Shown here piece after piece: positions 45,371-64,000 of a stretch of 64,000 nucleotides of DNA. The number at the start of each line of letters is the position of its first letter. Position 1 is the stretch's first letter. Location of the stretch: the NCBI GenBank assembly GCA_046760425.1, contig JBHIEC010000001.1, positions 325-64,324 on the forward strand. Reading direction: 5' to 3'. The notes beneath the pieces were generated by a model, which was not told the origin of the DNA, searched no databases, and was given only the letters and a program-made list of their open reading frames with translations. Source of the DNA: Anaerolineae bacterium. GTDB lineage: Bacteria; Chloroflexota; Anaerolineae; JBHIEC01. The position numbers and the translations under genes were made by a program.

Positions 45371-45404
45371 CGGAATCACCTCCTCCACAACCCCAAAGGC
45401 AGGG

Positions 45405-45600
45405 GCTAAGCCATTCGGATCGCCTCAAGTATCAGAAACCAGGTTTTTTTGTGCCCAAAAGCAGAGAAATTAGGGCTGTTTCAGTCACGTTCCCTGGCCA
45501 GAATCCCACCTTTTCAGAGTGGGAAAAAAACCTGGTTTCTTTGCGAACATGTTCAATCTAATATTGTCAAGATAGTTACGTCGTTCGGATCGCCTCAACC
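45405..45600. repeat. About 160-bp element with a ~20-bp internal inverted repeat, flanked by a 15-bp direct repeat at the 3' end of the response-regulator gene
   Basis: TTCGGATCGCCTCAA at 45408-45422 and again at 45586-45600. Internal AGAAACCAGGTTTTTTTG ... GAAAAAAACCTGGTTTCT. Confidence 0.55.
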
Positions 45601-45917
45601 AGATCTTCCGGGCGGGTAACCGTTCTCTGCTGTCTGGAATAAATGACCAACTCATTGCTCCCCACTTTCAGGCCGATCATCCTCAGCCCCAGGCTCTCCT
45701 GGAATATGCGAGACACACCAGGTATGAGAGGCTCATCTTCGTCGTTCTCATCCACGACGAGGATGTCGGGCTGTAGGACCTTGATTCGCTCCAGGGCCCT
45801 CTGGGCATCGGTATCTATGCCCACCACCTCTATCCCTTCCTCTCCCTGGAGGAGGCTCTCCACCGCCTGGGCGAAGAGGGGGTGTCGGAGAAGGATGAAG
45901 ACCCGGTGATTTTTCAT
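45576..45917 (-). CDS. Stand-alone response-regulator receiver domain protein
   Basis: 113 aa, CheY-like (DILVVDEND). Confidence 0.6.
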   Translation of the reverse strand: MKNHRVFILLRHPLFAQAVESLLQGEEGIEVVGIDTDAQRALERIKVLQPDILVVDENDEDEPLIPGVSRIFQESLGLRMIGLKVGSNELVIYSRQQRTVTRPEDLVEAIRTT

Positions 45918-46163
45918 CTCGCACCACTCACGGGAAAGATACTGGCGACCAAATCCGTTCTGAGAATGCGTCTGGTTCAGTAATGCAGCTCACTCATCGA
46001 GCACCACATTTCCAGACGAGACTCGCCAACGGGGAAATGGGCGGGTTAGGAACAATGCCGCTCCCCCGTCGCGAGTCGCCTTGATGACTTGGCCGTCAAT
46101 CACCACGTTCGAGGCGCCATAGGTACAGTGGCCAGGCGAAGGCTATGCGACAGCACGTCAGAC

Positions 46164-46739
46164 TCAACCGAGCAGTCGCCGGCAGTCCGGGCAGTAACGT
46201 GTGATCACGCTGAGGGTGGGAGCGTACTCATCTCCCAACATGGCTCTTATCCGCCTCAGCATAGCTTCAGGCGCGATGGGGGCACCACAGGCCTCACATC
46301 GCCGATTCCGGTCCCGGTAGAGCGACACCCTTCCCTGCGGCAGGCGCTGAAGGTCTGTGGTCCGCTGCAGGTGCAGCACCCCGTTTTCTGCCTCGGGACA
46401 CCTGGGGAGGCATTGGCCGCAGGCCGTGCACAGGGCAGCATCAAAGGTGAGGGAGATGCCGCCCTCACCCCTTCCCCTCCATCCCCCCTTCCCCTCTCCC
46501 AATTCTGGGAAAAGGGAAGGGGTGAGGGCCAGCGCGCCGGTGGGACAGGCGGCCGCACACATTCCACAACCCGTGCAGCCGTCGGTCACTTCGATCACCC
46601 CGAAGGGGGAGTGGGGATGGGCCAAGGAAAACTCCGCTGCTGCCCCGTAGGCTTCCGCCAGGTGCAGCAACACTTCGACAGCAGCCTTTGGAGCAGAGGT
46701 GCTGGGGTGCGCTGCATTATGATCTGGCAGATTCACCAA
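46164..46739 (-). CDS. 4Fe-4S dicluster ferredoxin-domain protein
   Basis: CTGCGMCAAACP and CTACGQCLPRCP clusters, separated by an in-frame palindromic insertion. Confidence 0.7.
   Translation of the reverse strand: MVNLPDHNAAHPSTSAPKAAVEVLLHLAEAYGAAAEFSLAHPHSPFGVIEVTDGCTGCGMCAAACPTGALALTPSLFPELGEGKGGWRGRGEGGISLTFDAALCTACGQCLPRCPEAENGVLHLQRTTDLQRLPQGRVSLYRDRNRRCEACGAPIAPEAMLRRIRAMLGDEYAPTLSVITRYCPDCRRLLG
46462..46528. repeat. In-frame palindromic insertion in the ferredoxin gene
   Basis: CCCTCACCCCTTCCC ... GGGAAGGGGTGAGGG. Encodes GEGKGGWRGRGEGGISLT between the two iron-sulfur cluster motifs. Confidence 0.6.
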
Positions 46740-46869
46740 TCTCTGTCCCGGGGTGCCCTGATAATCCAGGCCACGAGGCTACCCAGGAACAGCACCCACA
46801 CGGTGATCGCGGAGAGCATAAAGCTTCCGCCCATGCCCGGCACGGTCAGAATTCGGGTCCAGCTCTCCA

Positions 46870-48456
46870 TTAACTCCCTCCCTCACTCGCCCCAGAAGAC
46901 GCCACCGTCTCCGGGAGGTAACTTCGCAAGCGCTCCACCGTGGCCGGGATGGCCTCCGGGGCTTCCTGCACCTCCCAGATGGAGATGATGGGGAAGAGCT
47001 TGACGAAAAGGGCGTAAATCAAGACAAAACCCGCCAAAGCTGCCGCCGTGATGGACCACTCCACCCAGGTGGGACGGTAAATGCCGATGGAATACAGCAG
47101 CATCGGCCGGGTCTCGGTGGGGACGACGATGGTGAAGCGCTCCAGCCACATCCCCAGGTCCACCAGCAGCGAAGCCACCACGGTGCCGGCGATGATGTTG
47201 CGGCGCAGAGCGGGCAGGACCGAGGCGGCGAAGAGGGCCAGCAAGATACCCAGCAGCCACAGGAGCCGCTGCGAAACCGTGGGGGTCAGCGCCAGCCCGA
47301 CCTGAGCAGTGACAGGGGCCGCCTGGCTGAACATCACTATGGCCACGGCCAGGGCAGCCACCCCCGTAGCCAGGGCATACCTGGGCCGGAATGCCGGCAG
47401 TCGCATGCGCCTGGGCGCCGGCAGGTGAGGCAGAAGCAGCACCACAAAGGCCGCCGCCATCGCCGCCACCATCCCCCAGAAGACAATCTGGTATTCCCCC
47501 CTCAGCTTGGTGTTGAAAACGGCCATCTCGTGGGGTACCCCGCCGTAGCCAGTGGTCAGGTACTCGGCGAAGGTGAAGTAAAACCACAGGGCGTTGAAGG
47601 TGATGAGCAGCAGTCCCAGGTAGCGGAAGTGAAGCGGCTTGAGGTAGCCCTCCAGGTGGAAGGCTTTGCGGATGACCGCCATGGCGATGAGGATGGTGGC
47701 AATGCCCGAGTAGATAGCGCCGATGACAAAGTAGGGGCCAAAGATGGTGCTATGCCACATCGGCTGCAGCGTCATACCGAATATCCAGGAAACCACGGTG
47801 TGCACCGAGATGGCGAGGGGGATGATGAGGATGGCCATGATGGTGATGGCTTTCTCCAGGCGGCGCCGTTGTTCGGAGCCGCCGTGCCAGCCCAGGGCCA
47901 GGGTTCGGTAGAGCCACTGCCGCCAGGCTGGAGTCGTTGCGGGCAACTGATCCCGCAGGATAGCCAGATCAGGGATCAGCGGCAGGTAAAGGTACGTGAT
48001 GCTCCCCGTAATGTACATCCCCACTGAGGTGATGTCCCACAGCAGAGGCGACTGGAAGCGGCCGCGTAGGATCAGATTGAGAAGACGGTCTGGCCGGCCC
48101 ATATCGGCGAAGATTTGCGTGAGCGCCAGGGCCAGAGCAAAGACGGTGATGGCCTCGGCCGCGCGGGTGATGGGCCGCCGCCATTCCGCCCCGGCTACTC
48201 GCAGGATGGCGCTGATCAGCGTCCCGGCATGACTGATGCCGATGAAGAAGACAAAGTTGCTAATATACAGGCCCCAATAGATGGGCCGGTTCATCCCTGT
48301 CACGCCCAACCCCTCACGGAGCTGGTGCACCCAGGCGTACAGGCCCCAGGCCACCACTGCCGATAGGGCAGTCACCACCAGCCAGTAACCCAGCCTGGTG
48401 CGCAGGATGGGTGCCAGGAGCAGCGGGTCAACCGCTCTTGTCTCACGTTTGTTCAT
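46870..48456 (-). CDS. NrfD/PsrC-family polytopic membrane subunit (quinone-interacting)
   Basis: About 528 aa, multiple transmembrane helices. Start at MNKRETRA is preceded by GGAGGAGG. Confidence 0.75.
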   Translation of the reverse strand: MNKRETRAVDPLLLAPILRTRLGYWLVVTALSAVVAWGLYAWVHQLREGLGVTGMNRPIYWGLYISNFVFFIGISHAGTLISAILRVAGAEWRRPITRAAEAITVFALALALTQIFADMGRPDRLLNLILRGRFQSPLLWDITSVGMYITGSITYLYLPLIPDLAILRDQLPATTPAWRQWLYRTLALGWHGGSEQRRRLEKAITIMAILIIPLAISVHTVVSWIFGMTLQPMWHSTIFGPYFVIGAIYSGIATILIAMAVIRKAFHLEGYLKPLHFRYLGLLLITFNALWFYFTFAEYLTTGYGGVPHEMAVFNTKLRGEYQIVFWGMVAAMAAAFVVLLLPHLPAPRRMRLPAFRPRYALATGVAALAVAIVMFSQAAPVTAQVGLALTPTVSQRLLWLLGILLALFAASVLPALRRNIIAGTVVASLLVDLGMWLERFTIVVPTETRPMLLYSIGIYRPTWVEWSITAAALAGFVLIYALFVKLFPIISIWEVQEAPEAIPATVERLRSYLPETVASSGASEGGS

Positions 48457-48477
48457 GATCCAACCTCCTCCAAGTAA

Positions 48478-48554
48478 AGCCTTGCGAAGGTTGGCCACAG
48501 CCCCAGGTGCCTGGTTGCGGTCTGCCAAGTCCGAGGAGGAAACCTTCGCAAGGC
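48478..48554. repeat. Palindromic repeat family copy c (long-loop version)
   Basis: AGCCTTGCGAAGGTT ggccacagccccaggtgcctggttgcggtctgccaagtccgaggaggaa AACCTTCGCAAGGCT. Confidence 0.65.
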
Positions 48555-48751
48555 TTCAGCTTGGAAACCGCATAAGTACTTTTAATTATAAACCCCTCTT
48601 TCCCCTACGTCTATGCCCCAATCTGGTCCTTTTGGCGCAAAAAAAGAGCTATCTTTGCGATAGCTCAAAAGGGCTATAAGGGCGGGCTTGAGTCACCCGA
48701 GGGGGCCACATCCTCCCAGAGATAAACCTCCCATATTTCGACCACCCCCCA

Positions 48752-49423
48752 CTAAGTCTCTCGAGAAGGGGCGTGCACCAATCCCTTGCGGACGGCGTAG
48801 ACGGCTGCCTGGACGCGGTTCTCCAGGTGCAGCTTGGCCAGGATGTTGCGCAGATGGTTCTTGACCGTGTTCTCGGTGATGTACAGAGCCTCAGCGATCT
48901 CGGCGTTGGACAACCCCTCAGTTACCAGTTGCAGGACTTCCCGCTCACGATCGGTCAGGGCACTGCCCGGCTCGCCCCCCCGGGGTTGCAGGCGGGTCTG
49001 GCGGGAGAACTCCCGCAGGATCTTGCTGGCCATAAGGCGCGAGATGGGCGCCTCGCCCCGGGAGACGCCCCGCAGCATCTCGAACAGCTCTTCCGGCTCC
49101 AGCTTCTTCAGAAGGTAGCCCTGCGCCCCAGCCTTGATGGCCTCAAAGAGGTCCCGGTCGTCATCGGAGACGGTGAGCATGACGATCTTGACGTAGGGCA
49201 TCTCCTCCATGATCAGCCGCGTGGCCTCCCGCCCATCGCAGACGGGCATCGTGATGTCCATGAGGATCAGATCCGGCATCAGCTCCCGCGCCCGCTCCAG
49301 GGCCTCCAGCCCATCCCCGGCCTCGCCCACCACCTCGAAATCCTCCTGGGCAGCCAGCAGGCTGGCCAATCCCTTGCGGAACAGGATGTGGTCGTCCACC
49401 AGCAACACCCGCATGGCCTCCAT
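48752..49423 (-). CDS. NarL/FixJ-family response regulator (receiver plus LuxR-type HTH)
   Basis: MRVLLVDDH...DILMD receiver domain. C-terminal LTDREREVLQLVTEGLSNAEIA helix-turn-helix. Confidence 0.85.
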   Translation of the reverse strand: MEAMRVLLVDDHILFRKGLASLLAAQEDFEVVGEAGDGLEALERARELMPDLILMDITMPVCDGREATRLIMEEMPYVKIVMLTVSDDDRDLFEAIKAGAQGYLLKKLEPEELFEMLRGVSRGEAPISRLMASKILREFSRQTRLQPRGGEPGSALTDREREVLQLVTEGLSNAEIAEALYITENTVKNHLRNILAKLHLENRVQAAVYAVRKGLVHAPSRET

Positions 49424-49425
49424 GT

Positions 49426-51438
49426 CTACCCCTCTTCCCCCTCCTGGCCCCGGGGGACACGGACGATGACCCTGGTCCCCTTGCCAGGCTGGCTCTCAAT
49501 GGACAGGGCCCCGCCCAGGCTCTCCGCCCGCTCCCTCATGATGGCCAGGCCGAAGTGCCGCCCACCCTTGCGGGCTACGGTGTCGGCATCGAAGCCCCGA
49601 CCGTCGTCCTGGATGACGATCTCCGTCTGGTTCCCATCCAGCTTGAAGGCGACCAGGGCTCGCTGGGCCTGGGCATGCTTCCGTACGTTGGCCAGGGCCT
49701 CCTGCACGATGCGGATGAGCTGGATCTCGTCGGCCGGGGCGAAGTGGGGCTCCACATCGCCATCACGCACCACCAGCTCCGTCTGCAACCCGTGGCGCAG
49801 GCCGAACTCGTGGACGTACTCCCGCAGGGTAGGGATCAGCCCCCGCTCCCGGGAGACGGTGGTCCGCAGGTTGGTGATGGCTTCACGCACGTCGTCGTAG
49901 GACTCGCTGATAACCTCCTCGATCTGCTCCAGGTCCTCCTGAGCCTGGGCCAGCCGGCCGGCGGCCAGGTGCCCTTGGGCCACCTTGAGCTTGAGGTTGA
50001 GATAACCCAGGGCCTGGGCCAGCCCATCGTGCATCTCCCGCCCGATCCGATCCCGCTCCTCCAGCACAGCCAGGTTCTGCACCTCCTGAGATAGCTCCTG
50101 AACCCGCCGCTCCATCCCCTCATACAATTGGGCGTTCTCGATGGCTATGCCCAACTGGTTCCCGATGGCCGTCAGCAGCTCCACGTCATAGGGGCCGAAG
50201 TGGCGGGGCGGTCGGTCGTGGACAGTCAACACCCCCAGGGCGCGATCCTTGGCCCGCAGGGGCACACAGGCCACGGAATGATAGCCCTGGCGCTGACAGG
50301 CCAGGCGGGTGGCGCGGGGGTCGTTGTAGACATCCTGCACCACAATGGTCTCCGCCAGATGGCTGGCCTGGCCGCACAGGCACTGGCCCACCCCGATGGT
50401 GGTCTCCTCCTGGACAAAGTCGGTCGGGGAACCCACGTAGGCGCGCAGCTTCAACCTCTCCCCCCCATCCTCCAGCAGATAGATTTCCCCCGCCTCCATG
50501 TCCATCACCTCCAGCACCTCGGCCAACCCGCGGTCCAGGATCTGGGCCAGGTCCAGGGAGCGGATGGTGGTAGCCGTGATGCGATGCAGGGCGGAGAGCC
50601 GCTCCGTCTGGCGCTGGAGTGCCACGGTGCGTTCCTGGACCTGGCGCTCCAGCCTGGCCTTCTCCTCCAACCCCTGGGCCATGCGGTTGAAGGACTCGGC
50701 CAGCTCGCCAATCTCGTCCCGGCCGCCGACCCTCACCCGGGGTGTGAAGTCGCCCTGACTGAAGCGTTTAATGGGTACCATAAACTCTTCCAGCTTCTTG
50801 AGCACCAGCCGGTTCATGGCGAAGTTGACACCCAGGGCCGCCAGGAGGATGCCGACCAAGGAAAGCAGGATGTTCTGGCGCACATCGGCCGCCAGTTGGG
50901 CATCAATCTCGGCCATGGACAGGTCCGTGATCAGGACACCGTTGATCCTGGTGGCGGGATCGTGGCAGGCGTGGCACTCCTCCGCGTTGGCGATGGGGTT
51001 GACGTTGCGGAAAACCCGCTCGCCGCGTTGGGTGGTGAAGACCACGCTGCGGCTGCGGTCCTGGGGCTCCTCCTGATGACAGATCTGGCAGGTGGGGTCC
51101 TGCCGATCGAGCCTCGTCCCCACTTCCTCTTCCTGCGAGGAGATGCGGATCTCACCCCTCTTGTCGAGCAGAACGAGGTTCTTGACCCCCCTCTGGGTGG
51201 CGATGTCGTCCATGATCTGTCGCGTCTCCGACAGGTCACCGGACAGCATGGCGTAGCGCAGGCTACCCTCGATCACCTCTCCCAGGTTGGTGCTGCTGCG
51301 CTTCATACTGTCCATCAGGAGGTTGCGTTGGCGCACATACTGGAAATAGGTGAAGAACACCATGCTCAGCAGCAGGGGGATGACCACTCCGGCTGTGATC
51401 TTGAAACGCAAGCTGTCGTAGACCCGTTGGGGTCTCAT
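49426..51438 (-). CDS. Sensor histidine kinase with two CxxCH heme-c motifs in the periplasmic domain (HAMP-GAF-HisKA_3-HATPase)
   Basis: TM1, then CQICH and CHACH, then TM2. HAMP domain, GAF domain, H-box MHDGLAQ and ATPase domain. ATGA overlap with the upstream cytochrome gene. Confidence 0.8.
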   Translation of the reverse strand: MRPQRVYDSLRFKITAGVVIPLLLSMVFFTYFQYVRQRNLLMDSMKRSSTNLGEVIEGSLRYAMLSGDLSETRQIMDDIATQRGVKNLVLLDKRGEIRISSQEEEVGTRLDRQDPTCQICHQEEPQDRSRSVVFTTQRGERVFRNVNPIANAEECHACHDPATRINGVLITDLSMAEIDAQLAADVRQNILLSLVGILLAALGVNFAMNRLVLKKLEEFMVPIKRFSQGDFTPRVRVGGRDEIGELAESFNRMAQGLEEKARLERQVQERTVALQRQTERLSALHRITATTIRSLDLAQILDRGLAEVLEVMDMEAGEIYLLEDGGERLKLRAYVGSPTDFVQEETTIGVGQCLCGQASHLAETIVVQDVYNDPRATRLACQRQGYHSVACVPLRAKDRALGVLTVHDRPPRHFGPYDVELLTAIGNQLGIAIENAQLYEGMERRVQELSQEVQNLAVLEERDRIGREMHDGLAQALGYLNLKLKVAQGHLAAGRLAQAQEDLEQIEEVISESYDDVREAITNLRTTVSRERGLIPTLREYVHEFGLRHGLQTELVVRDGDVEPHFAPADEIQLIRIVQEALANVRKHAQAQRALVAFKLDGNQTEIVIQDDGRGFDADTVARKGGRHFGLAIMRERAESLGGALSIESQPGKGTRVIVRVPRGQEGEEG

Positions 51439-51440
51439 GG

Positions 51441-53516
51441 TTAGAATTTCCTGACCCGTTTAAAATAGTCTTCATCCAGTTGCCGCTTGGCATAGTAGAG
51501 CAGGCCACTGATCAGGGCGATGCTGGCCACGGCCACCACCATAGCCTGGCGGCGGAAGACGGTCTCGGCGATGGCCTTCTCGGCCCTGTCCCGCACCTCG
51601 GTGGCGATACTCCTGGCCTCCTCCGTTTTGTTCTCCGCTGTGGCCAACTGGACCGTGTGCTGGGCCGCCCGGGCTATGGTCAGGCTGGTTTTGGCTTCCC
51701 GCAGCCTCTCCTCCTCCACGGTCACGATCAGGCCCCTGGCCGCCGCCCGAGCCACCATGGCCTCCGCCTCCTCCACGGCGCCGGCCGCTCCGGCCAGGGC
51801 CTGATACATGTCAGCCACTATCCCTCCGATAGGAGTGTCGGGGGCGTGGCAGCTACCGCAGTGCCGTGGCTGATCCCCCAGGAACATCTCCTCGCTGGGC
51901 ACCATGACGTCATGGTGGCCATGACAGGTCACGCACTCGGGCATGCCGGGCGCTTTGGCCCCATGCCTGCCCTGCAAGTAGTAGTCCTGAGTGGCCGTGT
52001 GGCATCCCCCACAGACGCTGGCCACCTCTTCAAAGCCAGGAGGCGCGGCGCCGTGAGTCCCATGGCAGGTGGCACAACTGGGCGCCCGCAGGTCCTGCTT
52101 CTTGAGCAGCGCGATACCGTGGACACTTTCTTTATACAATTCGTACTGGTTGGTGGGGATACCATAGGGGCGCATGAACCCCTTGTCCGAGTGGCAAGAG
52201 GCACACAGGCCGGGCACGTTAGTGGGATAGACGCTGGTGGAGGGATCGTTGACCTCCCTGGTGCCGTGGCCATCGTGGCAATCGAAACAGGTGGCCACCC
52301 TCTGGTCTCCCTGGGTCAGGAGCTGGCCGTGCTGGCTTTCCAGGTACTTGGCATACTGGTCAATGGGCAAATCGTACTGGCGCATCAACTCCACCCGGGC
52401 GTGGCAGGAGCCACACAGGCTCGGGATATCGGCCTTAGCGGGCACACCGATGTAGCCGGCCTGAGGCGACATGGCCGCCCCGGCGTCGCTGGCCGCGGGG
52501 TCGCCGCCGTGGCAATCGGGACAGCGGATGCCCCGGCTGGCGTGGATGCTGCCCTGCCAGGCCGTGGTGATCTTCTCGTGTTTGCCTCCCAGGGCCTTGT
52601 GGCAATCCAGGCAAGTGTTCTGCCCGGGGGTGAAGGGGTACTGGATGGGCGTAGGCAAGGGTCGAGGGGGGGTCGTAGGCGTAGGTGTGGGCGTCGGCTG
52701 GGCCATGGCCGCTGGCTGGTGACAGCCCTGGCACGTATCGTTGGTGCGGTCAGCGTGGTCGGCCGGGAACTGCGGGGCACCTCCCACGCCGGTCTCGTGG
52801 CACATACGGCAGTTGTCACGCCCCTCCAGGGAATGGGGGATGGTGGGCGGGCCGGCCTGGGCAGCGGTGGGTTGTGCCGTGGCGATCGGCTGGTGACAGA
52901 ATTGGCATCCCTCGTTGGAGCGGCCGGCGTGATCGGCCGGGAACTGTGGTGCGCCGCCTACGCCGGTCTCATGGCAGCTCAGGCAGAGCTCCCGCCCCGC
53001 CACGGGGTGAGGGATCTGGGGCGGGGCTGCCGGCGAGGTGGGGGTGATAGTAGCCGTCGGTTCCACGGGGGTTGTGGGAGCGGCAACCACGGCCGGCTGG
53101 TGACAGTTCTGGCAGATGTCGTTGGTGCGGCCAGCATGATCTTTGGGCACCTGCGGGGCGCCGCCCACGCCGGCCTCGTGGCAGGCCAGACAGGCATCGC
53201 GCCCCTCCAGGGAGTGGGGAATAGGGGGAGGCACCAGCGGGGGGGTGGTGGCCTCTGGTTCGGGAGTCGCCACGGCCTCGGCGCTCACCCATTTGTGGCA
53301 CAACTGACACACCCGGTCCGTGCGGCCGGCGTGGGTGTCAGGCACCGGGGGCGCGCCGCCCACCCCCGTCTCGTGGCAGGTCAGGCACGCCTGACGCCCC
53401 TCCAGGGGATGGGGGATGGGGGGTTGGGCCAGGGCCAGACCCGGCAAGACGATGAGGACGACGGTCAGCCCCAGGGCCAGGATAGCTATCTCAAATACCA
53501 CAAGCGCTCGCATCAT
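51441..53516 (-). CDS. Large multiheme c-type cytochrome (about 17 CxxCH) with N- and C-terminal membrane anchors
   Basis: Four tandem paired-CxxCH modules (IPHxLEGRxxCLxCH...HAGRxxxxCQxCH), then a nine-motif domain homologous to 44081..45370. Confidence 0.85.
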   Translation of the reverse strand: MMRALVVFEIAILALGLTVVLIVLPGLALAQPPIPHPLEGRQACLTCHETGVGGAPPVPDTHAGRTDRVCQLCHKWVSAEAVATPEPEATTPPLVPPPIPHSLEGRDACLACHEAGVGGAPQVPKDHAGRTNDICQNCHQPAVVAAPTTPVEPTATITPTSPAAPPQIPHPVAGRELCLSCHETGVGGAPQFPADHAGRSNEGCQFCHQPIATAQPTAAQAGPPTIPHSLEGRDNCRMCHETGVGGAPQFPADHADRTNDTCQGCHQPAAMAQPTPTPTPTTPPRPLPTPIQYPFTPGQNTCLDCHKALGGKHEKITTAWQGSIHASRGIRCPDCHGGDPAASDAGAAMSPQAGYIGVPAKADIPSLCGSCHARVELMRQYDLPIDQYAKYLESQHGQLLTQGDQRVATCFDCHDGHGTREVNDPSTSVYPTNVPGLCASCHSDKGFMRPYGIPTNQYELYKESVHGIALLKKQDLRAPSCATCHGTHGAAPPGFEEVASVCGGCHTATQDYYLQGRHGAKAPGMPECVTCHGHHDVMVPSEEMFLGDQPRHCGSCHAPDTPIGGIVADMYQALAGAAGAVEEAEAMVARAAARGLIVTVEEERLREAKTSLTIARAAQHTVQLATAENKTEEARSIATEVRDRAEKAIAETVFRRQAMVVAVASIALISGLLYYAKRQLDEDYFKRVRKF

Positions 53517-55411: not shown

Positions 55412-56491
55412 TTAGCAGATCCTGGGCAGCATCTCCCCGGTCAGCATGTCCACCAGGCGCGTCCCACCGATCTCCGTCTGCATCAGGACCCTGCCCGCTG
55501 GCTCCGCCACCACCTGACCAATGGCCACCGCCCCCTGGCCATGGCGGGTCTTGCGCATGGCCGCCAGCACCGCCTCGGCATCCTCGGGGGCTACCATGGC
55601 CACCAGCTTGCCCTCGTTGGCCACGTAGAGGGGATCGTAGCCCAGCATCTCGCAGGCGGCGTGGACGGCGGGCCGCACGGGGATCTTCCCCTCCTCGATG
55701 CGGATGCCCACCTGGGACTGACGGGCGATCTCGTTCAGGGTGGTGGCCAGGCCGCCACGGGTGGGATCGCGCAGGACGTGGATATTGTGGCTGGCCTCCA
55801 GCATGGCCGCCACCAGGCCGTTGAGGGGGGCGATGTCGCTCTCTAGCTCCGTCTCAAAGCCCAACCCTTCCCGCTCGCTGAGGACGGCGATGCCATGGTC
55901 GCCGATGGGGCCGGAGAGGAGCACCACGTCGCCCACCTGGGCCCTGGTGCCGGAGATGTCCACCCCCGGCGGGACGAGGCCCACGCCGGCGGTGCTGATA
56001 AACAGCCCATCGGCTCCGCCCTGCTCCACCACCTTGGTGTCACCAGCCACGATCTGGATTCCCACCTCGGCTGCCGCGGCCCGCATGGACTCCACCACCC
56101 GCCGCAGGATGCCCACCGTCAACCCCTCCTCGATGACGAAGGCTGCCGAGAGGTAGAGGGGGGTGGCGCCGCTCATGGCCAGGTCATTCACCGTGCCGCA
56201 CACGGCCAGCCGTCCGATGTCGCCGCCGGGGAAGAAGAGCGGCTTGACCACGTGGGAGTCGGTGGTGAAAGCCAGGCGAAAGTCCGAGGTCAGGGGTCCA
56301 AAGTTCAAAGTCGAGGGGCCCCGGACTTCAGACTTCGGACTTTGGACTTTGGACATTTCCAGCACCGCCGAGTCGTCCAGGCGAGCCAGGGCGGGGTTAA
56401 CAAAGGGGGGCAGGAAAAGCTTCTCCACCAGCTCATGGCTCATCCTGCCGCCGCTGCCGTGGGCCAGGAGGATCTTGTCCCTATCCCTCAT
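55412..56491 (-). CDS. hypE: Hydrogenase maturation protein HypE, with an in-frame repeat insertion
   Basis: MRDRDKILLAHGSGG...TTDSHVV...LAVCGTVNDLAMSGATPL. The N-terminal region contains an inserted SKVQSPKSEVRGPSTLNFGPLTSDFRL segment. Confidence 0.85.
   Translation of the reverse strand: MRDRDKILLAHGSGGRMSHELVEKLFLPPFVNPALARLDDSAVLEMSKVQSPKSEVRGPSTLNFGPLTSDFRLAFTTDSHVVKPLFFPGGDIGRLAVCGTVNDLAMSGATPLYLSAAFVIEEGLTVGILRRVVESMRAAAAEVGIQIVAGDTKVVEQGGADGLFISTAGVGLVPPGVDISGTRAQVGDVVLLSGPIGDHGIAVLSEREGLGFETELESDIAPLNGLVAAMLEASHNIHVLRDPTRGGLATTLNEIARQSQVGIRIEEGKIPVRPAVHAACEMLGYDPLYVANEGKLVAMVAPEDAEAVLAAMRKTRHGQGAVAIGQVVAEPAGRVLMQTEIGGTRLVDMLTGEMLPRIC
56276..56359. repeat. GTCCAAAGTCC-type palindromic element inserted in frame in hypE
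   Basis: AGTCCGAGGTCAGGGGTCCAAAGTTCAAAGTCGAGGGGCCCCGGACTTCAGACTTCGGACTTTGGACTTTGGAC. Confidence 0.7.
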
Positions 56492-57575
56492 ACACCCCTC
56501 CGTAGTGATAGTAGGCTGCGCAGGCCCCCTCGGCCGAAACCATGCAGGGCCCCATGGGCCGCTCCGGAACGCAGCCTTTGCCGAAGAGAGGGCAATCGAG
56601 GGGCTCAGCCACTCCCCGCAGCACTTCCCCACAACGACAGCCCTTAGGCTCCCGCGTCGGCCCGGGGTCAATGTCGAAAGCCTGCTCGGCGTCGAAGCGG
56701 GCATACTTGGGCCGCAGCTTCAACCCACTCTGGGGAACCACCCCTAACCCCCGCCACGGTGCCTCGCAGATTTCGAAGACGCGGTACATCTGCTCCATGG
56801 CCCACTGGTTGCCTTCGGGCCGCACGCTGCGGCGGTAAGCGATCCCCACCTCGGCCCGCCCCTCCTCCAACTGATCCACCAGCATGGCCACGCCCTGCAG
56901 GATGTCCAGGGGCTGGAAGCCAGCGATGACGCAGGGTATGCCGTAGTCCTGGGGCAGGAACTCCCAGGCTCGGGCGCCGATGACAGTGGTCACGTGGCCT
57001 GGGCCGATGATGCCATTCAGCCGCACCTCACCCGCGTCCAGGATAGCCTTGGTGGCCGGCGGGGTCAGTTTGTGCATAGACAGAAGGTAGTAGTTCTCGA
57101 TCCCCTCCTGCTCCGCCTGCAGGATGGAGGCGGCGATGCCCGGGGCGGTGGTCTCAAAGCCCACCCCCAGGAAGACGACCGCTTTATCCGGATTGTCCCG
57201 GGCGAGGTGTAAGGCGTCCAGAGGGGAGTAGACCATGCGCACGTCGGCCCCCTCCGCTTTGACCTTCTGGAGGCTGCTGCGGCTGGCAGGCACCTTGAAC
57301 ATGTCGCCGAAGGTGGCGATGATCACCCCCGGCTCCCGGGCCAAGGCGATGGCCTTGTCCAGATCGGCGTTGTCCGTGACGCACACGGGGCAGCCAGGGC
57401 CAGACAGCATCTCCACCGTGGGGGGCATCACCTGGCGGATGCCGTAGCGCAGGATGGCCACGGTGTGGCCGCCGCAGAACTCCATGAGGCGGATGGGGCG
57501 GGTGGAGCGACGATGGATGTGCTCGATGAGGCCCTTGGCCAGCGCACCGTTGCGGTACTCGTCTACGTACTTCAT
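56481..57575 (-). CDS. hypD: Hydrogenase maturation protein HypD
   Basis: CGGHT motif, GPGCPVC, C-terminal CxxC...C. Confidence 0.9.
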   Translation of the reverse strand: MKYVDEYRNGALAKGLIEHIHRRSTRPIRLMEFCGGHTVAILRYGIRQVMPPTVEMLSGPGCPVCVTDNADLDKAIALAREPGVIIATFGDMFKVPASRSSLQKVKAEGADVRMVYSPLDALHLARDNPDKAVVFLGVGFETTAPGIAASILQAEQEGIENYYLLSMHKLTPPATKAILDAGEVRLNGIIGPGHVTTVIGARAWEFLPQDYGIPCVIAGFQPLDILQGVAMLVDQLEEGRAEVGIAYRRSVRPEGNQWAMEQMYRVFEICEAPWRGLGVVPQSGLKLRPKYARFDAEQAFDIDPGPTREPKGCRCGEVLRGVAEPLDCPLFGKGCVPERPMGPCMVSAEGACAAYYHYGGVYEG

Positions 57576-57826
57576 GGGGCTCCCACGGCCTCCAGCAAGA
57601 CCTCCTGAGGCAGAGCCTCCGCCAGTTCCTGGAACAGGCGCAGAGTCTCCTGGGCCTCGGCCTCGTCAATGACGCCGATGGCGTAGCCGGTGTGCACCTG
57701 GACGTAATCGCCGACCTGGGCCTCCGGCGTCAGCCACAGGCTGATGCGGCGGCTGATGCCGCCCATGTCCACCTCAGCCTCCAGGCCCTCGATGGATACC
57801 ACCCGAGCGGGTATGGCTAAGCACAT
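57572..57826 (-). CDS. hypC: Hydrogenase maturation protein HypC
   Basis: N-terminal MCLAIP. Confidence 0.85.
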   Translation of the reverse strand: MCLAIPARVVSIEGLEAEVDMGGISRRISLWLTPEAQVGDYVQVHTGYAIGVIDEAEAQETLRLFQELAEALPQEVLLEAVGAP

Positions 57827-57906
57827 TGATTGTTGCCTCCTGGCGACCCTTCTTCGCTCGTGACCAGCTTCAGAAACATGGCTGGCGGGATAATCTTAAC
57901 CCTCCT

Positions 57907-60477
57907 TTAGCCTCGGGCACAGCTGAAATGCCCGATCACCGCCTGCCCCAAAGCAATGCCTCCGTCGTTGGGCGGGACGAGGTGGTGGATGTAGACCTTA
58001 AAGCCCGCTCTCCGTAGCAGCTCCAAGGTCCTGGCCAGAAGGTAGACGTTCTGGAACACGCCACCGCTCAGGGCCACGCGGTTCAGGCCCTCCCGCTCCC
58101 GGATCAGACCGCACACCTCTGACACCATGTGAGCCACGGCGTTGTGAAACCTGGCGGCGATGATCGGCCGTTGGACGTTAGCTCGTAGATCAGCCACGAC
58201 GCCACGGATGACTGGAGCAGGATCCACAATCCATGGCCCATCCTGCATCCCTTCGGCAGCCCTTCGACGGAGCTCAGGGCCCCGCCTGTACCCCCATTCG
58301 TAGGCTTCCTCGACCCCCTCAGCGGCGATCATCTCCAGCTCAATGGCTGCCTGGGCCTCGTAGTTGACCATCTGGCGCAGGCCGATGAGGGCCGAGACGG
58401 CGTCGAAGAGGCGGCCCATGCTCGAGGTCAGGGGGGAATTGAGCCCGGCCTCCATCTGGTGCCAGGCCACCTTCTGCTCCAGCGGATCAAGCCCCTCCAT
58501 GGTGGGGAGATCGAGGTCCAAAGAGCCGTAGGCGTGACGGAGGTGGCTCCAGGCCATGCGGTAGGGCCGCCTGATAGCCGCCTCGCCGCCGGGCAGGGGC
58601 ACGTAGGCCAGGTGAGCAGCACGCCGGAAGTCGGTGTAGTCACAGACCAGGAACTCGCCGCCCCAGATACGACCATCTGCCCCGTAGCCAGTGCCATCGA
58701 AGGCCACGCCGATGACCGGCTCCTCCAACCCCTGCTCGGCCATGCAGGCAGCGATGTGGGCGTGGTGGTGCTGGACCGCGATTTGCGATTTGCGATTTGC
58801 GATTTGCGATTTGGCATACTTGGTGGCCAGGTACTCTGGGTGCATGTCATAGGCGATGATTTCCGGCTCGACGCGAAACAACCGTTTGAAATGCTCGATC
58901 ATGGCCTCGTAGGATACAAGGGTCTCGAAGTTCTCCATATTGCCGATGTGCTGGCTCAGGAAGGCGTAGTTCTCCTTGGTCAGGCAAAAGGTGTTCTTCA
59001 GTTCCGCCCCGCAGGCCAGGATCTGGCGCACCTGGAAGGGGAGGCGCACGGGATAGGGGGCGTAGCCCCGCGAGCGGCGGATGGGCAGCTCCTGTCCCTG
59101 GAAAACGCGCACCACCGAGTCGTCGCAGCGAGCGTGGATGTCCCGATCGTGGAGCAGGAAGTAGTCGGCCAGGCAGGCCAGTCGCTCCAGGGCTTCCCGG
59201 TTGTCGGTGGCGATGGGCTCCTCGGAATAGTTGCCGCTGGTCATCACCAGGGCAAGGAGAGACGAGTCCCTCTCGTCACTCATCACTCGTTCCTCGTTAC
59301 TCAACAGCAAGTAATGGAGCGGCGTGTAGGGCAGCATGACCCCCAGATACTTGTTGCCCGGCGCTACCCACTCCGAGATGGGCGAGTCAGGCCGCTCCCG
59401 GAGCAAGACGATGGGGCGCTCCCGCGACTCCAGCAGCCGGCCTTCCTCCTCGTTGACGTAGCAGTACCTCTTCACCGTCTCCAGGTCGTAGGACATGATG
59501 GCGAAAGGTTTGTCCACCCGCCCCTTGCGCTCTCGCAGCCGTCGCACCGCCTCGTCGTTGGTGGCGTCGCAGGCCAGATGGAAACCTCCGAGACCCTTCA
59601 CGGCCACGATAGCCCCCTGGGTCAGGAGCTGCCGCGCCCTCTCGATAGGATCGTCCGCATAGTCCAAAGTCCCAAGTCCAGAGACTTCGGCGAGCCTTCG
59701 GGCTGAGGCCCCTTCGTCAGGCTCGGGGCAAGCTCTCAAGGCTTCGCCGTCGAGGCTCAGCCGAACGGCCGAAGGCTCAGTCGAGCCGCTCACCGTCGAA
59801 GCCTCGGTCGAGCCGTCCGAAGCCAACAGATTTTGACTTTGGACCTTGGACTTTGGGCTTTGAGCCAACCACACCTTCGGGCCGCACTCTGGACAGGCAT
59901 TCGGTTGGGCGTGAAAACGACGGTCGAGAGGATCATCGTACTCAGCCTGGCAGACAGGGCACATGACGAAGGGGCGCATGGTGGTCTTGGGACGATCGTA
60001 GGGGATGTCCTGGATGATAGTGAAGCGGGGGCCGCAGTTGGTGCAGTTGGTGAAGGGGTAACGGTAGCGCCGATCCCGGGGGTCGAACAGTTCCCGCAGG
60101 CAGTCAGGGCAGGTGCAGATGTCAGGCGAGATGGGCTGGAACCTCCCCTCCTGGGCCACGCTGTGGCGGATCTCGAAGTGGTCGTAGCCGTTGGGGGGGT
60201 GATCGGATGACGTGACCTTCTCGATGCGAGCCAGGGGCGGGGCCTCGGCCTGCAGATCGAACAGGAACCGATCCAGGACCTCGCGCCGGCCCTCGACCTC
60301 AATATCCACGCCCGCTGAGGTGTTGCACACCCAGCCCGTCAGCCCGTATCTGTCGGCCAGTTGGTAGACGAAGGGGCGGAAACCCACCCCCTGCACCACG
60401 CCGGTGACGTGGACCTTTCTCAGGATAAGGTCAGCTCTCTCCGCCAAAGGTGTACCCTCGTCTGCTCCAGCAGCCAT
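57907..60477 (-). CDS. hypF: Carbamoyltransferase HypF, with two in-frame repeat insertions
   Basis: Acylphosphatase domain, two CxxC-x18-CxxC zinc fingers, YrdC-like and Kae1-like domains. About 70 inserted residues lie between the second zinc finger and the YrdC domain; SQIANRKSQIA is inserted further on. Confidence 0.9.
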   Translation of the reverse strand: MAAGADEGTPLAERADLILRKVHVTGVVQGVGFRPFVYQLADRYGLTGWVCNTSAGVDIEVEGRREVLDRFLFDLQAEAPPLARIEKVTSSDHPPNGYDHFEIRHSVAQEGRFQPISPDICTCPDCLRELFDPRDRRYRYPFTNCTNCGPRFTIIQDIPYDRPKTTMRPFVMCPVCQAEYDDPLDRRFHAQPNACPECGPKVWLAQSPKSKVQSQNLLASDGSTEASTVSGSTEPSAVRLSLDGEALRACPEPDEGASARRLAEVSGLGTLDYADDPIERARQLLTQGAIVAVKGLGGFHLACDATNDEAVRRLRERKGRVDKPFAIMSYDLETVKRYCYVNEEEGRLLESRERPIVLLRERPDSPISEWVAPGNKYLGVMLPYTPLHYLLLSNEERVMSDERDSSLLALVMTSGNYSEEPIATDNREALERLACLADYFLLHDRDIHARCDDSVVRVFQGQELPIRRSRGYAPYPVRLPFQVRQILACGAELKNTFCLTKENYAFLSQHIGNMENFETLVSYEAMIEHFKRLFRVEPEIIAYDMHPEYLATKYAKSQIANRKSQIAVQHHHAHIAACMAEQGLEEPVIGVAFDGTGYGADGRIWGGEFLVCDYTDFRRAAHLAYVPLPGGEAAIRRPYRMAWSHLRHAYGSLDLDLPTMEGLDPLEQKVAWHQMEAGLNSPLTSSMGRLFDAVSALIGLRQMVNYEAQAAIELEMIAAEGVEEAYEWGYRRGPELRRRAAEGMQDGPWIVDPAPVIRGVVADLRANVQRPIIAARFHNAVAHMVSEVCGLIREREGLNRVALSGGVFQNVYLLARTLELLRRAGFKVYIHHLVPPNDGGIALGQAVIGHFSCARG
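58778..58812. repeat. 7-bp tandem repeat GCGATTT x5, in frame in hypF
   Basis: Five perfect units. Encodes KSQIANRKSQIA on the minus strand. Confidence 0.75.
59661..59866. repeat. Composite in-frame insertion in hypF: GTCCAAAGTCC-type inverted ends enclosing a copy of the 38188-38302 palindromic element
   Basis: AGTCCAAAGTCCCAAGTCCAGAGACTTCGG...GAGCCTTCGGGCTGAGG...GGCCGAAGGCTCA...GATTTTGACTTTGGACCTTGGACTTTGGGCTTTGAGCC. Confidence 0.7.
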
Positions 60478-60482
60478 GGGGC

Positions 60483-60824
60483 CTACTCCACCTCAATGCT
60501 GTCAACGTAGAACTCTTTGCCTGCCACCACCTCGAAGCTGAGCTGGCCGCAGTCAGGGCAGTGCCAGTCCAGGTCCTGGGGGGTGAAAATGCGCCCACAG
60601 TGATGGCAACGCATCTGGGTGGGGATGCGCTGAAAGGAGAGGGTAGCTCCCTGGGCGATAGTGCCTTCGCTCAAGACATCGAAATAGAACTGTACCGAGT
60701 CATCAATGATGCCGGTCATATCGCCGATGACCAGATTGATCTGGGTGACCCGTCTGGCCTTGGCCTTTTCAGCGTGCTCCAGGACTGTGGCCAATACCCC
60801 CTGGGTGACAGCAAACTCATGCAT
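60483..60824 (-). CDS. hypA: Hydrogenase nickel-insertion protein HypA
   Basis: MHEFA N-terminus. CHHCG...CPDCG zinc site. Confidence 0.85.
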   Translation of the reverse strand: MHEFAVTQGVLATVLEHAEKAKARRVTQINLVIGDMTGIIDDSVQFYFDVLSEGTIAQGATLSFQRIPTQMRCHHCGRIFTPQDLDWHCPDCGQLSFEVVAGKEFYVDSIEVE

Positions 60825-60889: not shown

Positions 60890-61411
60890 TCAGGCTATCT
60901 CTTTCAGGATCAGCTCCACAACCTTTGGAACCAGGGCTGCGAGCTCAGGGGTGAGCTCCAGGCCCCAGCTCACCTCTTTGGGCTCTACGCCGTAGATGAT
61001 GATCTCTCGGGGCCGGCAGCCCAACTGCTCGGCCATCCCCAGCACATCGAGCAGGTCAATCTGATGCACCGAGGTGATGAACTTGCTCTCGGGCGTGATA
61101 TCCTCGGGGGTGAAGCGATAGACGGCCCCTGGCTCGCTGCCGCCCCTGACGGCGTCAATGACGATGAGGCGGTCGTAGTCCGCGATGTAGTTGAGCAGGT
61201 CCAGGGCAGCCGTCCCCCCGTCCAGCAGGTCCACGTGCGGCGGCAAAGACAGCCCTTCCATGGCCTGCACCAGGTGCACGCCGAAGCCTTCGTCCTGGAG
61301 CAGGATATTGCCCACGCCCAGGATCAACGTACGAGGGGCAGAGGATCGTCCCTCTGCCCCTCTCCTGTTTCCCTTGGCCATGCTTCCTCGCCCAGTGGAT
61401 ACCAGGGACAT
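60890..61411 (-). CDS. Hydrogenase maturation endopeptidase (HyaD/HybD/HupD family)
   Basis: LILGVGNILLQDEGFGVH...IDA. Start is ambiguous between 61411 and 61381. Confidence 0.8.
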   Translation of the reverse strand: MSLVSTGRGSMAKGNRRGAEGRSSAPRTLILGVGNILLQDEGFGVHLVQAMEGLSLPPHVDLLDGGTAALDLLNYIADYDRLIVIDAVRGGSEPGAVYRFTPEDITPESKFITSVHQIDLLDVLGMAEQLGCRPREIIIYGVEPKEVSWGLELTPELAALVPKVVELILKEIA

Positions 61412-61437: not shown

Positions 61438-62040
61438 CTAGGCCTCTTCGGCGGGGGCCTCGTAGCCGGTGATCATGGCCTTGAGGAGCCTGAGGCCCTC
61501 GGAGAAGACGAGATAGAGGTGGAGCATCAGGAAGTAGATGAAGATCCAGTTGACCAGGTAGTGATAGGCGCGCACGTAGGTCAACCCGCCGGCCAGGTTC
61601 ACCACTGCTGCGAAGAGATCGGGCCAGTACAGGGCGAAGCCTAGAACCCCCTGCACCACGGAGATGACGAACATGCCCAGGTAGGTGAACTTCTGGAGAG
61701 GGTTGTACTTAATGACCTGCGGCTTCTCATCCGTTAGGAAGAGATAGTACCTCAGCCAGGGTCCTATGGTCCTGAAGCTCTCGGCCGTTGGGAACTCATC
61801 TCGCCATTCTCCCGACACCAGCCAATGGTAGGTGTGGAAGGCGCCCACAGCGCAAAAGAGGTACATAAAGATGAAGTGGAGGAAGCGGGCCGTGTTCAGG
61901 CTGCCGAAGAGGTTCCAGCTCGGGCTATGAATCTGGAACCCCGTCAGGATCAGGATAGTGACGTTCAACAGGTGGATCCAATGGCCCGCCCGCTCCAGGA
62001 GGGGGTGCTTCAGGTATCCTTCCAGCTTTGCCTCTGCCAC
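61438..62040 (-). CDS. [NiFe] hydrogenase b-type cytochrome membrane subunit (HyaC/HupC-like)
   Basis: 200 aa, four transmembrane helices with conserved histidines (HWIHLLN, HTYHW, HYLVNW). Confidence 0.75.
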   Translation of the reverse strand: MAEAKLEGYLKHPLLERAGHWIHLLNVTILILTGFQIHSPSWNLFGSLNTARFLHFIFMYLFCAVGAFHTYHWLVSGEWRDEFPTAESFRTIGPWLRYYLFLTDEKPQVIKYNPLQKFTYLGMFVISVVQGVLGFALYWPDLFAAVVNLAGGLTYVRAYHYLVNWIFIYFLMLHLYLVFSEGLRLLKAMITGYEAPAEEA

Positions 62041-62052: not shown

Positions 62053-63606
62053 CTACACAACCCTGAACTCGCCCAGGCTGCGTCCCTTGGGCGTGACCAG
62101 GTGGACGGCGCAGGCGATGCAGGGGTCAAAAGCGCGGACGATGCGCACGATCTCAAAGGGGTTCTCCACATCCTTGACCGGCGCGCCTGTCAGAGCCTGC
62201 TCCACTGGCCCCGGCTGATCCCTGTCGTCGCGCGGCGAGTTGTTCCAGGTGCCTGGCACCACGCACTGGTAGTTCTTGATCTTGCCCCCCTCGATGTTGA
62301 TGTAGTGCAACAGGGCTCCTCGCGGCGCCTCCCACAGGCCCAGACCCTCGCTCTTGTCGGGCACCGTGTGATCCACATAGACGGGCTCACCCGGCTTGAG
62401 CTGCAGGAGCCAGTCAACCATGGCGTCGGCTACAAACTTGGTCTCCAGGGCCCGCGCCGCGTGGCGACCCAGGGTGGAGAAGAGGACCGTAGGCGGGGCA
62501 TCGAAATAGGCCAGGGTGTCGTTCACCAGCTTCTGAACCGTCGGCTCGCCGGCCGTGTAGGAGACCAGCATGCGGGCCAGGGGCCCCACCTCGTGGACCT
62601 CCCCGTTGTAGCGCGGCGCCTTCATCCAGGAATAGGCCCCCGCCTTGTGAGGATCAGGGTCTGTCTCGCCCTGGCGGGGATTCAGGCCGGAGCCGGACTT
62701 GTACCAACTGTACTTGACGTCCTCGGTGATTTTAGCGGAGTCGAGGGCCTTGTGAGTCAGGGTTTCGTCCGTCGTGCCCTGCTTGTGCAGCCTGGCCCGC
62801 TGCTCCAGGGGCAGCTTGGTGTCCAGGTCGAACAGCCCATAGGACAGATACTTCTTGCAGCCCACGCCGATTTCGAAGTAGTCGGAATAGACACCGGCCA
62901 CAGCCAGGACATCAGGGATGTAGACGTTGTCAATGAAATCCCGCTGCCGGTTGAGCATCCACAGGAAGTTAGCGATCTTGTCCACAGTGGGCACTTCGGT
63001 GACGCCGCCGGGTACGACGGCCATGTTATGAGGCATGTGGCCACCGAAGATGGCCAGCATCTCCTGAGCCTCGCGACGCATGTCCAGAGCTTTAATGTAA
63101 TGGGACACGGCGGCCCGATCAACCTCAGGCGGCAGGCGGTAGTCGCCTTCGAAACGCGGCACGAAGGGCTGCAGCGCCCCACGCTCGATGAATTTGGCCA
63201 CCGAGCGTAGGCCAGGATCAGGGCCGTCGTAGCCGGCTACATGGGTCACATCCACGTAGTCCAGGGCCGCCAGGTGGTAGAAATGGAGGATGTGGGACTG
63301 GATGTAGTTGGCCCCCTGGATCAGGTTGCGGATGATGCGGCCGTTATCGGGAACCTTCTCCGAGACCCCCAGGGCCTCGTCCAAAGCGAGCGCTGAACTC
63401 AGCGCGTGACACGTCGGTCAGACACCTCATATGCGTTGTGTGAGGCGCTGGGCATCCCGGGGGTCACGGCCCCGCAGGAGGATCTCGAAACCACGGAAGA
63501 GCATCCCCGCCGCCCTAGCCTCCTTGACCTCCCCATTCTCCACCACGCACTCGATCTTCAGGTGGCCCTCGATGCGGGTCATGGGATCTATGGTGATCTT
63601 TGCCAT
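62053..63606 (-). CDS. [NiFe] hydrogenase large subunit with two in-frame TGA codons at the N-terminal Ni-ligating cysteines (candidate Sec-Sec hydrogenase)
   Basis: ATG at complement 63604-63606, preceded by AAGGAGG. Translation MAKITIDPMTRIEGHLKIECVVENGEVKEARAAGMLFRGFEILLRGRDPRDAQRLTQRI-TGA-GV-TGA-PTCHALSSALALDEALGV... continues in frame into ORF 62053..63384. The two TGA codons are at 63427-63429 and 63418-63420 (complement). C-terminal motif DPCIACAVH is followed by a 15-aa extension for the maturation protease. Confidence 0.75.
63390..63405 (-). promoter_or_regulatory. Candidate bacterial SECIS hairpin 12 nt downstream of the second in-frame UGA
   Basis: mRNA GCGCUG AGUU CAGCGC: 6-7-bp GC-rich stem with a G/U-containing apical loop, positioned at the spacing expected for SelB-dependent recoding. 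Confidence 0.45.
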
Positions 63607-63663: not shown

Positions 63664-64000
63664 CTACTCCTCAGCACCTTTGCCCAGCCGGCCTCGGGCT
63701 GCAGAACCCACCAGGTGCGCCCCAATGCCCACGGCCGTGGCCGCCGCCAGGCCGATGCCGATCCTATCGGCGTTGGTCCTGACCCCGGGCAGGGTGACGC
63801 CCGAAACCCTAGCACGCAAAGGCGAGACACCGTCCACGAAGATGGGCTCGGTGCAGCCGATGCAGCCGTGGCCACAGCCTACGCACCAACTGACCTTGTT
63901 GTTCCAGCGCCGGGCGGGACAATCGGCGTAGGTCACGGGCCCCTTACAGCCCAGCTCGTAGAGACACCCGGGCTCGCCAAACTGCTTGGCGAAACGGCCC
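63664..64000 (-). CDS. [NiFe] hydrogenase small subunit, C-terminal part (gene continues beyond the window end)
   Basis: GRFAKQFGEPGCLYELGCKGPVTYADCPARRWNNKVSWCVGCGHGCIGCTEP (distal cluster motif), then a hydrophobic C-terminal anchor typical of membrane-bound group 1 enzymes. Confidence 0.8.
   Translation of the reverse strand, partial: GRFAKQFGEPGCLYELGCKGPVTYADCPARRWNNKVSWCVGCGHGCIGCTEPIFVDGVSPLRARVSGVTLPGVRTNADRIGIGLAAATAVGIGAHLVGSAARGRLGKGAEE

Follow-up and report, generated by a model that had tools for sequence, protein, structure and literature searches.

An Anaerolineae bacterium (assembly GCA_046760425.1) encodes a Group-1-type [NiFe] hydrogenase large subunit whose gene carries two in-frame UGA codons 9 nt apart (6 nt lie between them), upstream of one RNA hairpin. 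We analyzed this gene in a 64,000-nucleotide stretch of contig JBHIEC010000001.1 (hereafter the window, to which all coordinates refer) and compared it with related loci, and we propose, with a probability of about 0.68, that both UGA codons are recoded by the SelB/Sec-tRNA(Sec) pathway for selenocysteine (Sec), with a single hairpin at 63405–63390 serving as the candidate selenocysteine insertion sequence (SECIS). The elements on which this proposal rests are as follows.

62053–63606, minus strand: [NiFe] hydrogenase large-subunit gene of Group-1 type (517 codons and a terminal TAG), in which two UGA codons lie in frame
63430–63432, minus strand: AUA (Ile) codon directly 5′ of the first UGA; a rare codon and possible context signal
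63427–63429, minus strand: first UGA (UGA1), at the first Cys position of the L1 motif RxCGxC
63418–63420, minus strand: second UGA (UGA2), at the second Cys position of the same motif
63390–63405, minus strand: candidate bacterial SECIS, a 6-bp stem (63405–63400 paired with 63395–63390) closed by the tetraloop AGUU (63399–63396)

The large-subunit reading frame opens with an ATG at 63606, downstream of a GGAGG ribosome-binding site, and closes with TAG at 62055–62053; the two TGA codons are its sole interruptions. The L1 motif reads QRI-UGA-GV-UGA-PTCH within a translation of the form ...DAQRLTQRI-U-GV-U-PTCHALSSALALDEA..., and the C-terminal end reads ...FDPCIACAVH.... The protein scores 727.4 bits against NCBIfam NF033181 (cut-off 600) and only 20–33 bits against NuoD-type models, its nearest solved structure is the [NiFeSe] hydrogenase of D. 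vulgaris Hildenborough (5jsu_B, E = 1e-145), and its nearest homologues come from Chloroflexota. Both TGA codons align exactly with the Cys residues of QRICGVCPTAH in 5jsu_B, and by homology the Cys at the UGA1 position is the predicted terminal Ni ligand and the Cys at the UGA2 position the predicted Ni–Fe bridging ligand. The canonical C-terminal DPCxxC site reads DPCIACAVH, with Cys codons and no UGA. If both codons give Sec, Ni in this enzyme would have a terminal and a bridging Se ligand, and the canonical C-terminal Sec site of [NiFeSe] enzymes would remain Cys. A further Cys codon, UGU at 63409–63411 (minus strand), lies three residues past the second UGA (U-P-T-C-H); this Cys is common to loci L001 and L027, is replaced by Ser in L028 and by Ala or Thr in relatives with one UGA or none in this motif, and could act as a selenenylsulfide partner.

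TGA is an ordinary stop codon elsewhere in the window, so any UGA recoding in the large-subunit gene is local. It terminates 21 of the 51 long open reading frames (ORFs), among them genes with typical codon-position GC content, which rules out genome-wide UGA reassignment (code 4 or 25), and a scan of the other window genes for in-frame TGA returned gene junctions or non-coding frames alone.

The candidate hairpin, GCGCUG-AGUU-CAGCGC, is present in both the minimum free energy (MFE) and centroid folds and starts 12 nt past UGA2 and 21 nt past UGA1. A consensus model of the bacterial SECIS specifies a loop of 3–9 nt on an upper stem of 4–16 bp, G at loop position 1, 2 or both, with G or U as the usual next nucleotide, a UGA-to-apical-loop distance of 16–37 nt and an energy of −7.5 kcal/mol or lower (PMC13188914). 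The window hairpin has a 4-nt loop with G at position 2 followed by U, a 6-bp stem and an energy of −9.3 kcal/mol (evaluated as a simple hairpin), and its loop lies 18 nt from UGA2 and 27 nt from UGA1, within the model range for both codons. The E. coli fdhF stem-loop covers nt 15–31, which places it 11 nt beyond the UGA, and depends on G23 and U24 (PMC8659212); counting the U of UGA2 as nt 1, the window stem-loop spans nt 16–31 and likewise has G23 and U24 in its loop. In L035, a related gene whose Sec is at the canonical C-terminal site, the upper stem of the SECIS lies 11 nt past the UGA and bears a CGUGAU loop, which suggests that 11–12 nt is the usual UGA–hairpin spacing among related hydrogenase genes. 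This usual geometry argues that the hairpin is set for UGA2 and that UGA1 is an upstream addition.

An earlier note on this DNA, made from the sequence letters, had pointed to two closely spaced UGA codons sharing one candidate SECIS at 12 and 21 nt; the coordinates and the fold prediction agree, and one hairpin is the sole conserved downstream structure. Its premise that bacterial SECIS elements act at a fixed distance holds for E. coli fdhF, with its 11 nt (PMC8659212), but is too strict in general, the consensus model allowing 16–37 nt (PMC13188914). By itself the window hairpin stands out only modestly: of the 1871 UGA trinucleotides in the window, 4.5% are followed within the permitted range by a G-loop hairpin of equal stability, the 101-nt region around it folds no better than shuffled sequence (z = −0.44), and a search of the window with Rfam at gathering thresholds returned no SECIS family, the only matches being a T-box and a 6S RNA. 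It is the comparative evidence that convinces.

The double UGA recurs in 27 further loci (28 with the window) that fall into at least nine divergent subfamilies from Chloroflexota, Nitrospirota and others. A codon-level search for the pattern T-Q-R-I-UGA-G-V-UGA-P-x-x-H, with the downstream sequence left free and any Ile codon allowed, matched two GTDB genomes (a Nitrospirota and a Thermodesulfovibrionales metagenome-assembled genome, MAG) and 21 metagenome contigs, and L001, L027 and L028/L029 came from searches at the protein level for homologues that are truncated. We refer to these loci as UxxU, and to relatives that have UGA only at the second position, or Cys codons at both, as CxxU and CxxC. 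The full-length UxxU proteins make up at least nine subfamilies, with 29–57% identity between subfamilies, and the best matches of the tested subfamily representatives are all Group-1 models. In every UxxU locus the hydrogenase frame is open on both sides of the UGA codons as far as the locus extends, with the exception of L003, which is broken 3′, and the C-terminal motif is Cys-Cys in all loci whose 3′ end is present. The break in L003 (Thermodesulfovibrionales MAG, CAVZMO010000022.1) falls ~27 codons past the double UGA and is probably a long-read frameshift error and not the mark of a pseudogene. UxxU and CxxU hydrogenases are systematically mis-annotated: gene callers cut the window gene into ORFs of 59 and 443 aa, and similarly split ORFs (~59 aa and ~445 aa) are seen in the window, L001, L027, L028 and L030, for which the protein collection has fragments alone.

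A hairpin follows the UGA codons in every UxxU locus, its first or second loop nucleotide being G, and 27 of 28 loci have GU in the loop, the exception being L008 with the loop GGC. Across these loci the hairpin loop lies 17–25 nt from UGA2 and 26–34 nt from UGA1, ranges that fall within the 16–37 nt of the model and from which L015 (GCUUC-CGUGA-GAAGC) was left out because the spacing scan took another hairpin there. Within the window clade (window, L001, L027 and L028) all 16 hairpin nucleotides are invariant; the six hairpin codons are identical in the four genes, and the synonymous codons of the flanks are ~55–65% identical. Four CxxU relatives (L030, L032, L033 and L034) have UGA at the UGA2 position and a hairpin at exactly the same codons, with the sequence GCGUUG-GCUG-CAACGC or GCGCUG-GCUU-CAGCGC, and the distant UxxU locus L022 has GACUG-AGUU-CAGUC at the window hairpin position. 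The stem changes in these relatives convert C-G to U-A, G-C to A-U and C-G to G-C, and RNAalifold analysis of the nine sequences (window clade, four CxxU loci and L022) identifies compensatory changes in three of six pairs. The hairpin is absent from the CxxC relatives L026 and L031, where the best candidates reach −1.5 and −1.3 kcal/mol. The earlier note had allowed that the hairpin might be missing from homologous genes or fail to covary, and that both positions might be Cys codons in the real genome; the hairpin is present in homologues and kept through compensatory changes, and the two positions are UGA in many independent assemblies.

The remaining UxxU subfamilies have the hairpin 5–6 nt closer to the 3′ end, with stem sequences quite unlike those above. 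When 13 distinct distal hairpins were anchored on their apex, five stem positions were paired in 13 of 13, with 2–4 pair types at each position and an apex that is always G-U. An eight-sequence alignment (A2) has 95.8% of cells paired compared with 81.5% in shuffles, none of 500 shuffles reached 95.8%, and sliding the pairing partner left at most 46% of cells paired. Per-class and center-anchored alignments were used because the hairpin center shifts by 1–6 nt between subfamilies, a shift that caused a MAFFT alignment over all hairpin classes (A1) to be misaligned. The distal-hairpin subfamilies (L002–L024) also have a 4–8 bp mini-helix between UGA2 and the SECIS, at nt +11 to +27 from UGA1, that pairs CCCA with UGGG, CCCG with CGGG or ACCG with CGGU; it is built mostly from Pro and Gly codons, and one of its pairs changes from A-U to G-C. 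Because the window clade lacks this mini-helix, a general role for it as a spacer was rejected for the window.

Two sequence features accompany UGA1. The codon ATA makes up 32 of the 656 Ile codons in window genes (4.9%; 0–45% within individual hydrogenase genes), and of the 28 UxxU loci 26 have AUA directly before UGA1, whereas the four CxxU relatives have AUU or AUC. AUA is also present in the L1 motif of L035 and L036, two identical loci of Cys type at this motif, which speaks against a signal exclusive to UGA1, so the link is an enrichment and not a rule. The four CxxU loops, GCUG or GCUU, likewise differ from the G-U loops of UxxU loci (AGUU, GUU, CGUGA and others), a difference that includes an Ala-to-Ser codon change (GCU to AGU); these four loci probably form a single clade. 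Together, AUA and the G-U loop suggest context requirements for decoding the distant UGA1, and AUA may act through a P-site or −1-nucleotide context effect.

In the mechanism that we propose, the hairpin would lie 21 nt downstream when UGA1 occupies the A site, outside the mRNA channel and still folded, and hairpin-bound SelB would reach the A site over a single-stranded tether 9 nt longer than at UGA2. A tether longer than needed could loop out; one that is too short could not be compensated. Once Sec, Gly and Val have been added, three translocations would bring the same intact hairpin to the canonical 12 nt, where a second SelB·GTP·Sec-tRNA complex would serve UGA2. UGA1 is probably the less efficient step, and its decoding may be helped by the rare preceding AUA codon and the G-U loop. 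Comparison of the loci points to a likely evolutionary order from CxxC to CxxU with a SECIS and then to UxxU with the SECIS position unchanged; the hairpin of the CxxU relatives, at the same place, indicates that UGA1 was gained without SECIS repositioning. A more specific version treats UGA1 decoding as a distinct long-range SECIS mode, with one SelB-binding hairpin used twice within three codons (at 21–27 nt, then at 12–18 nt) and the first use needing AUA in the P site and a strict G-U apex; we consider this version tentative and rather unlikely.

Several observations weigh against recoding of both codons through one hairpin. Recoding amounts to ~30–40% per UGA in E. coli (PMC4513850), so two UGA codons would sharply lower the full-length yield, although a low yield may be acceptable or even regulatory. 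By analogy with fdhF, where the UGA–hairpin spacing is functionally tight, 21 nt may be poor for UGA1, and in most of the other UxxU subfamilies, with their more distal hairpins, neither UGA has the E. coli spacing. tRNA-ReC, which gives Cys at UGA via SelB, occurs in ~56% of UXXU genomes (Takano et al. 2026, PMC13582414). The 64-kb window contains no selA, selB, selD or tRNA-Sec gene, and the Sec trait of the organism is assumed: ARAGORN returned no tRNA-Sec in the window, and NCBIfam analysis of 20 large window proteins returned no Sec machinery, the sole SelD-like match being HypE.

The tRNA-ReC genes lead to the explanation that one or both UGA codons, most plausibly UGA1, are read as Cys, by a selC*-like, SelB-delivered tRNA-ReC or by near-cognate tRNA-Cys, so that the enzyme would be CxxU or a Cys/Sec mix. 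The share of UXXU genomes with tRNA-ReC-like genes compares with ~2.3% of other Sec-type genomes, and according to Takano et al. Cys may be inserted at either UGA (PMC13582414); the UGA1–hairpin distance is non-canonical, and the CxxU relatives show that Cys at the first position with UGA2 makes a viable enzyme. We nonetheless find this explanation improbable: the window holds no such tRNA, a UGC or UGU codon would be cheaper if Cys were intended, and retention of UGA1 across at least nine deeply divergent subfamilies argues that UGA itself is selected. The same non-canonical spacing, 21–27 nt and thus far from the 11 nt of E. coli fdhF, would also fit a role of UGA1 mainly as a selenium-sensing checkpoint, at which most ribosomes stop and hydrogenase synthesis is throttled by Sec-tRNA supply, with two-Se chemistry not the point. 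The recoding of only 30–40% per UGA in E. coli (PMC4513850) is in keeping with such a role, as is the lack of an obvious catalytic gain, given that engineered E. coli Hyd-1 variants C76U and C79U have 3% and 13% of native activity and poor O2 tolerance (PMC8020662). A checkpoint could sit at any codon, however, whereas the UGA codons hit precisely the two metal-ligand positions in every locus; it would moreover be compatible with double recoding and not exclusive of it, and as the main function of UGA1 we hold it to be quite improbable.

A larger or alternative RNA structure spanning the UGA codons, which the earlier note had raised as possibly serving both, appears less probable again. In the MFE fold of the single sequence, a UCA further downstream pairs with UGA1 and UGA2 falls in a loop, but in L001 this fold loses one pair without compensation. 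RNAalifold adds one extra helix only, upstream, between GAUGCCCA, 20–27 nt upstream, and UGAGGUGUC; it has no covarying pair, none being changed on both sides, and is built from conserved codons. The short helix between UGA2 and the main hairpin in distal subfamilies (CCCA/UGGG or ACCG/CGGU) would also fit a larger element but is missing from the window clade, and any structure that includes the UGA codons must melt when they occupy the A site. That the locus is a pseudogene, an assembly error or the product of a reassigned genetic code, as the two called ORFs and the fragments in protein databases might indicate, is barely credible: the same arrangement stands in 27 other independent loci with frames open on both sides (save the 3′ break in L003), both stops fall exactly at Cys-ligand codons, and TGA ends ordinary genes in the window. 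Recoding of both UGA codons through the one conserved hairpin is the reading that we prefer.

The window gene departs from two described types of hydrogenase, the canonical [NiFeSe] enzyme with its C-terminal Sec and the UXXU set of Group 4, and probably works like the latter in another enzyme group. A September 2026 paper, Takano et al., described CXXU, UXXC and UXXU hydrogenases in Group 4 only, called UXXC and UXXU "previously unrecognized", stated that Sec is C-terminal in Groups 1 and 3 save for three CXXU sequences, and proposed a single SECIS for both UGA codons of Group 4 UXXU genes (PMC13582414). A May 2026 review gives only UxxC for hydrogenase large subunits (PMC13188914), and our full-text literature searches found no report of a Group-1 UxxU hydrogenase. 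As in the Group 4 UXXU genes, UGA stands at both Cys positions of the N-terminal CXXC in the window gene, a single SECIS-like hairpin with G as its first or second loop nucleotide follows, and CXXU relatives have the same SECIS architecture; the Group 4b SECIS was likewise not repositioned. The window gene thus shares the double UGA and hairpin that define Group 4 UXXU genes but lies outside Group 4, whose enzymes are energy-converting and multisubunit; it encodes an uptake enzyme of Group 1, which has cytochrome b and a small subunit anchored in the membrane. Our observations on Group-1 UxxU genes go beyond that study in the AUA context, the G-U apex and the exact fdhF-like phasing to UGA2; Group-1 UxxU is moderately novel, given how recently its Group 4 counterpart was described.

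The window gene shares with canonical Group 1 [NiFeSe] hydrogenases (D. vulgaris Hildenborough and Desulfomicrobium baculatum; 5jsu, 2wpn and 1cc1) the NF033181 family, the L1/L2 layout and a periplasmic or membrane-bound uptake type, but the single Sec of these enzymes occupies the first Cys position in the C-terminal DPCxxC motif, where the window gene has Cys (DPCIAC) and instead carries two N-terminal UGA codons. Its hairpin resembles the E. coli fdhF SECIS in lying inside the ORF just 3′ of a UGA and in the same G23/U24 phasing from UGA2, and differs from it in having neither a bulged U17 nor a supported lower stem and in the second UGA 9 nt upstream. Bacterial UxxU proteins are known among Prx-like thiol:disulfide oxidoreductases, a putative mercuric reductase/metal-binding protein and the FmdB family (PMC13188914, PMC9312934). 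Those proteins also have two Sec codons two codons apart and need a nearby intragenic SECIS, but their families are unrelated, and the pair there is a dithiol/diselenol for redox reactions or metal binding and not a set of NiFe ligands.

The genes around the large-subunit gene support its functional assignment.

63664–64000, minus strand: 3′ part of the hydrogenase small-subunit gene, cut by the window edge; it encodes a hydrophobic anchor and the [FeS] Cys motifs of the C-terminus
61438–62040, minus strand: Ni-hydrogenase b-type cytochrome subunit (Pfam PF01292 on the identical L025 product)
60890–61411, minus strand: hydrogenase maturation endopeptidase of HycI/HyaD type (Pfam PF01750 on the identical L025 product)
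55412–60824, minus strand: hyp maturation genes (HypA 60824–60483, HypF 60477–57907, HypD 57575–56481, HypE 56704–55412)

The small-subunit gene lies upstream of the large-subunit gene, and cytochrome b, the HycI-type protease and HypA/F/D/E lie downstream. By this gene content the neighboring genes are a predicted Group-1 uptake operon, of the membrane-bound type: small subunit, large subunit and cytochrome b stand in one operon, and the twin-arginine (Tat) signal, SRRNFLK, was read in the full-length small-subunit orthologue of L028. A cluster of multihaem c-type cytochrome genes (38356–53516, minus strand) adjoins the hyp genes and includes an ArrA/PhsA-like molybdopterin oxidoreductase gene (44084–41664) and a DsrP/NrfD-like membrane subunit gene (48528–46870); its position beside the hyp genes suggests H2-driven respiration of some acceptor. 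Elsewhere in the window, a 6S RNA (15744–15579) and a T-box leader (15479–15172) stand back to back on the minus strand (15172–15744) just downstream of aspS (17610–15778), and three paralogous aldehyde:ferredoxin oxidoreductase-like genes are present (18907–20652, plus strand; 25792–23933 and 28286–26385, minus strand). The lone tRNA call by ARAGORN, an 84-nt tRNA-Arg(CCG) at 24394–24477, has mismatched stems and lies inside an aldehyde:ferredoxin oxidoreductase gene, and we rejected it as a false positive.

Selenium at the N-terminal terminal and bridging positions, with sulfur at the canonical Sec position, would be the inverse of the [NiFeSe] enzymes studied so far. Retention of UxxU in at least nine divergent Group-1 subfamilies of anaerobes, set beside the poor activity and O2 sensitivity of the engineered C76U and C79U enzymes (PMC8020662), implies some benefit. 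Hydrogenase surveys will undercount or misclassify UxxU genes because these are routinely split into fragments of 59 and ~445 aa. The locus offers an internally controlled test of SECIS reach, with one mRNA, one hairpin and two UGA codons 9 nt apart, for which the natural CxxU and CxxC sister genes provide controls. Should the long-range mode hold, Group-1 UxxU hydrogenases would form a natural class of wide occurrence in which Ni has one terminal and one bridging Se ligand, and the spacing that bacterial SelB tolerates would be far greater than the E. coli paradigm suggests.

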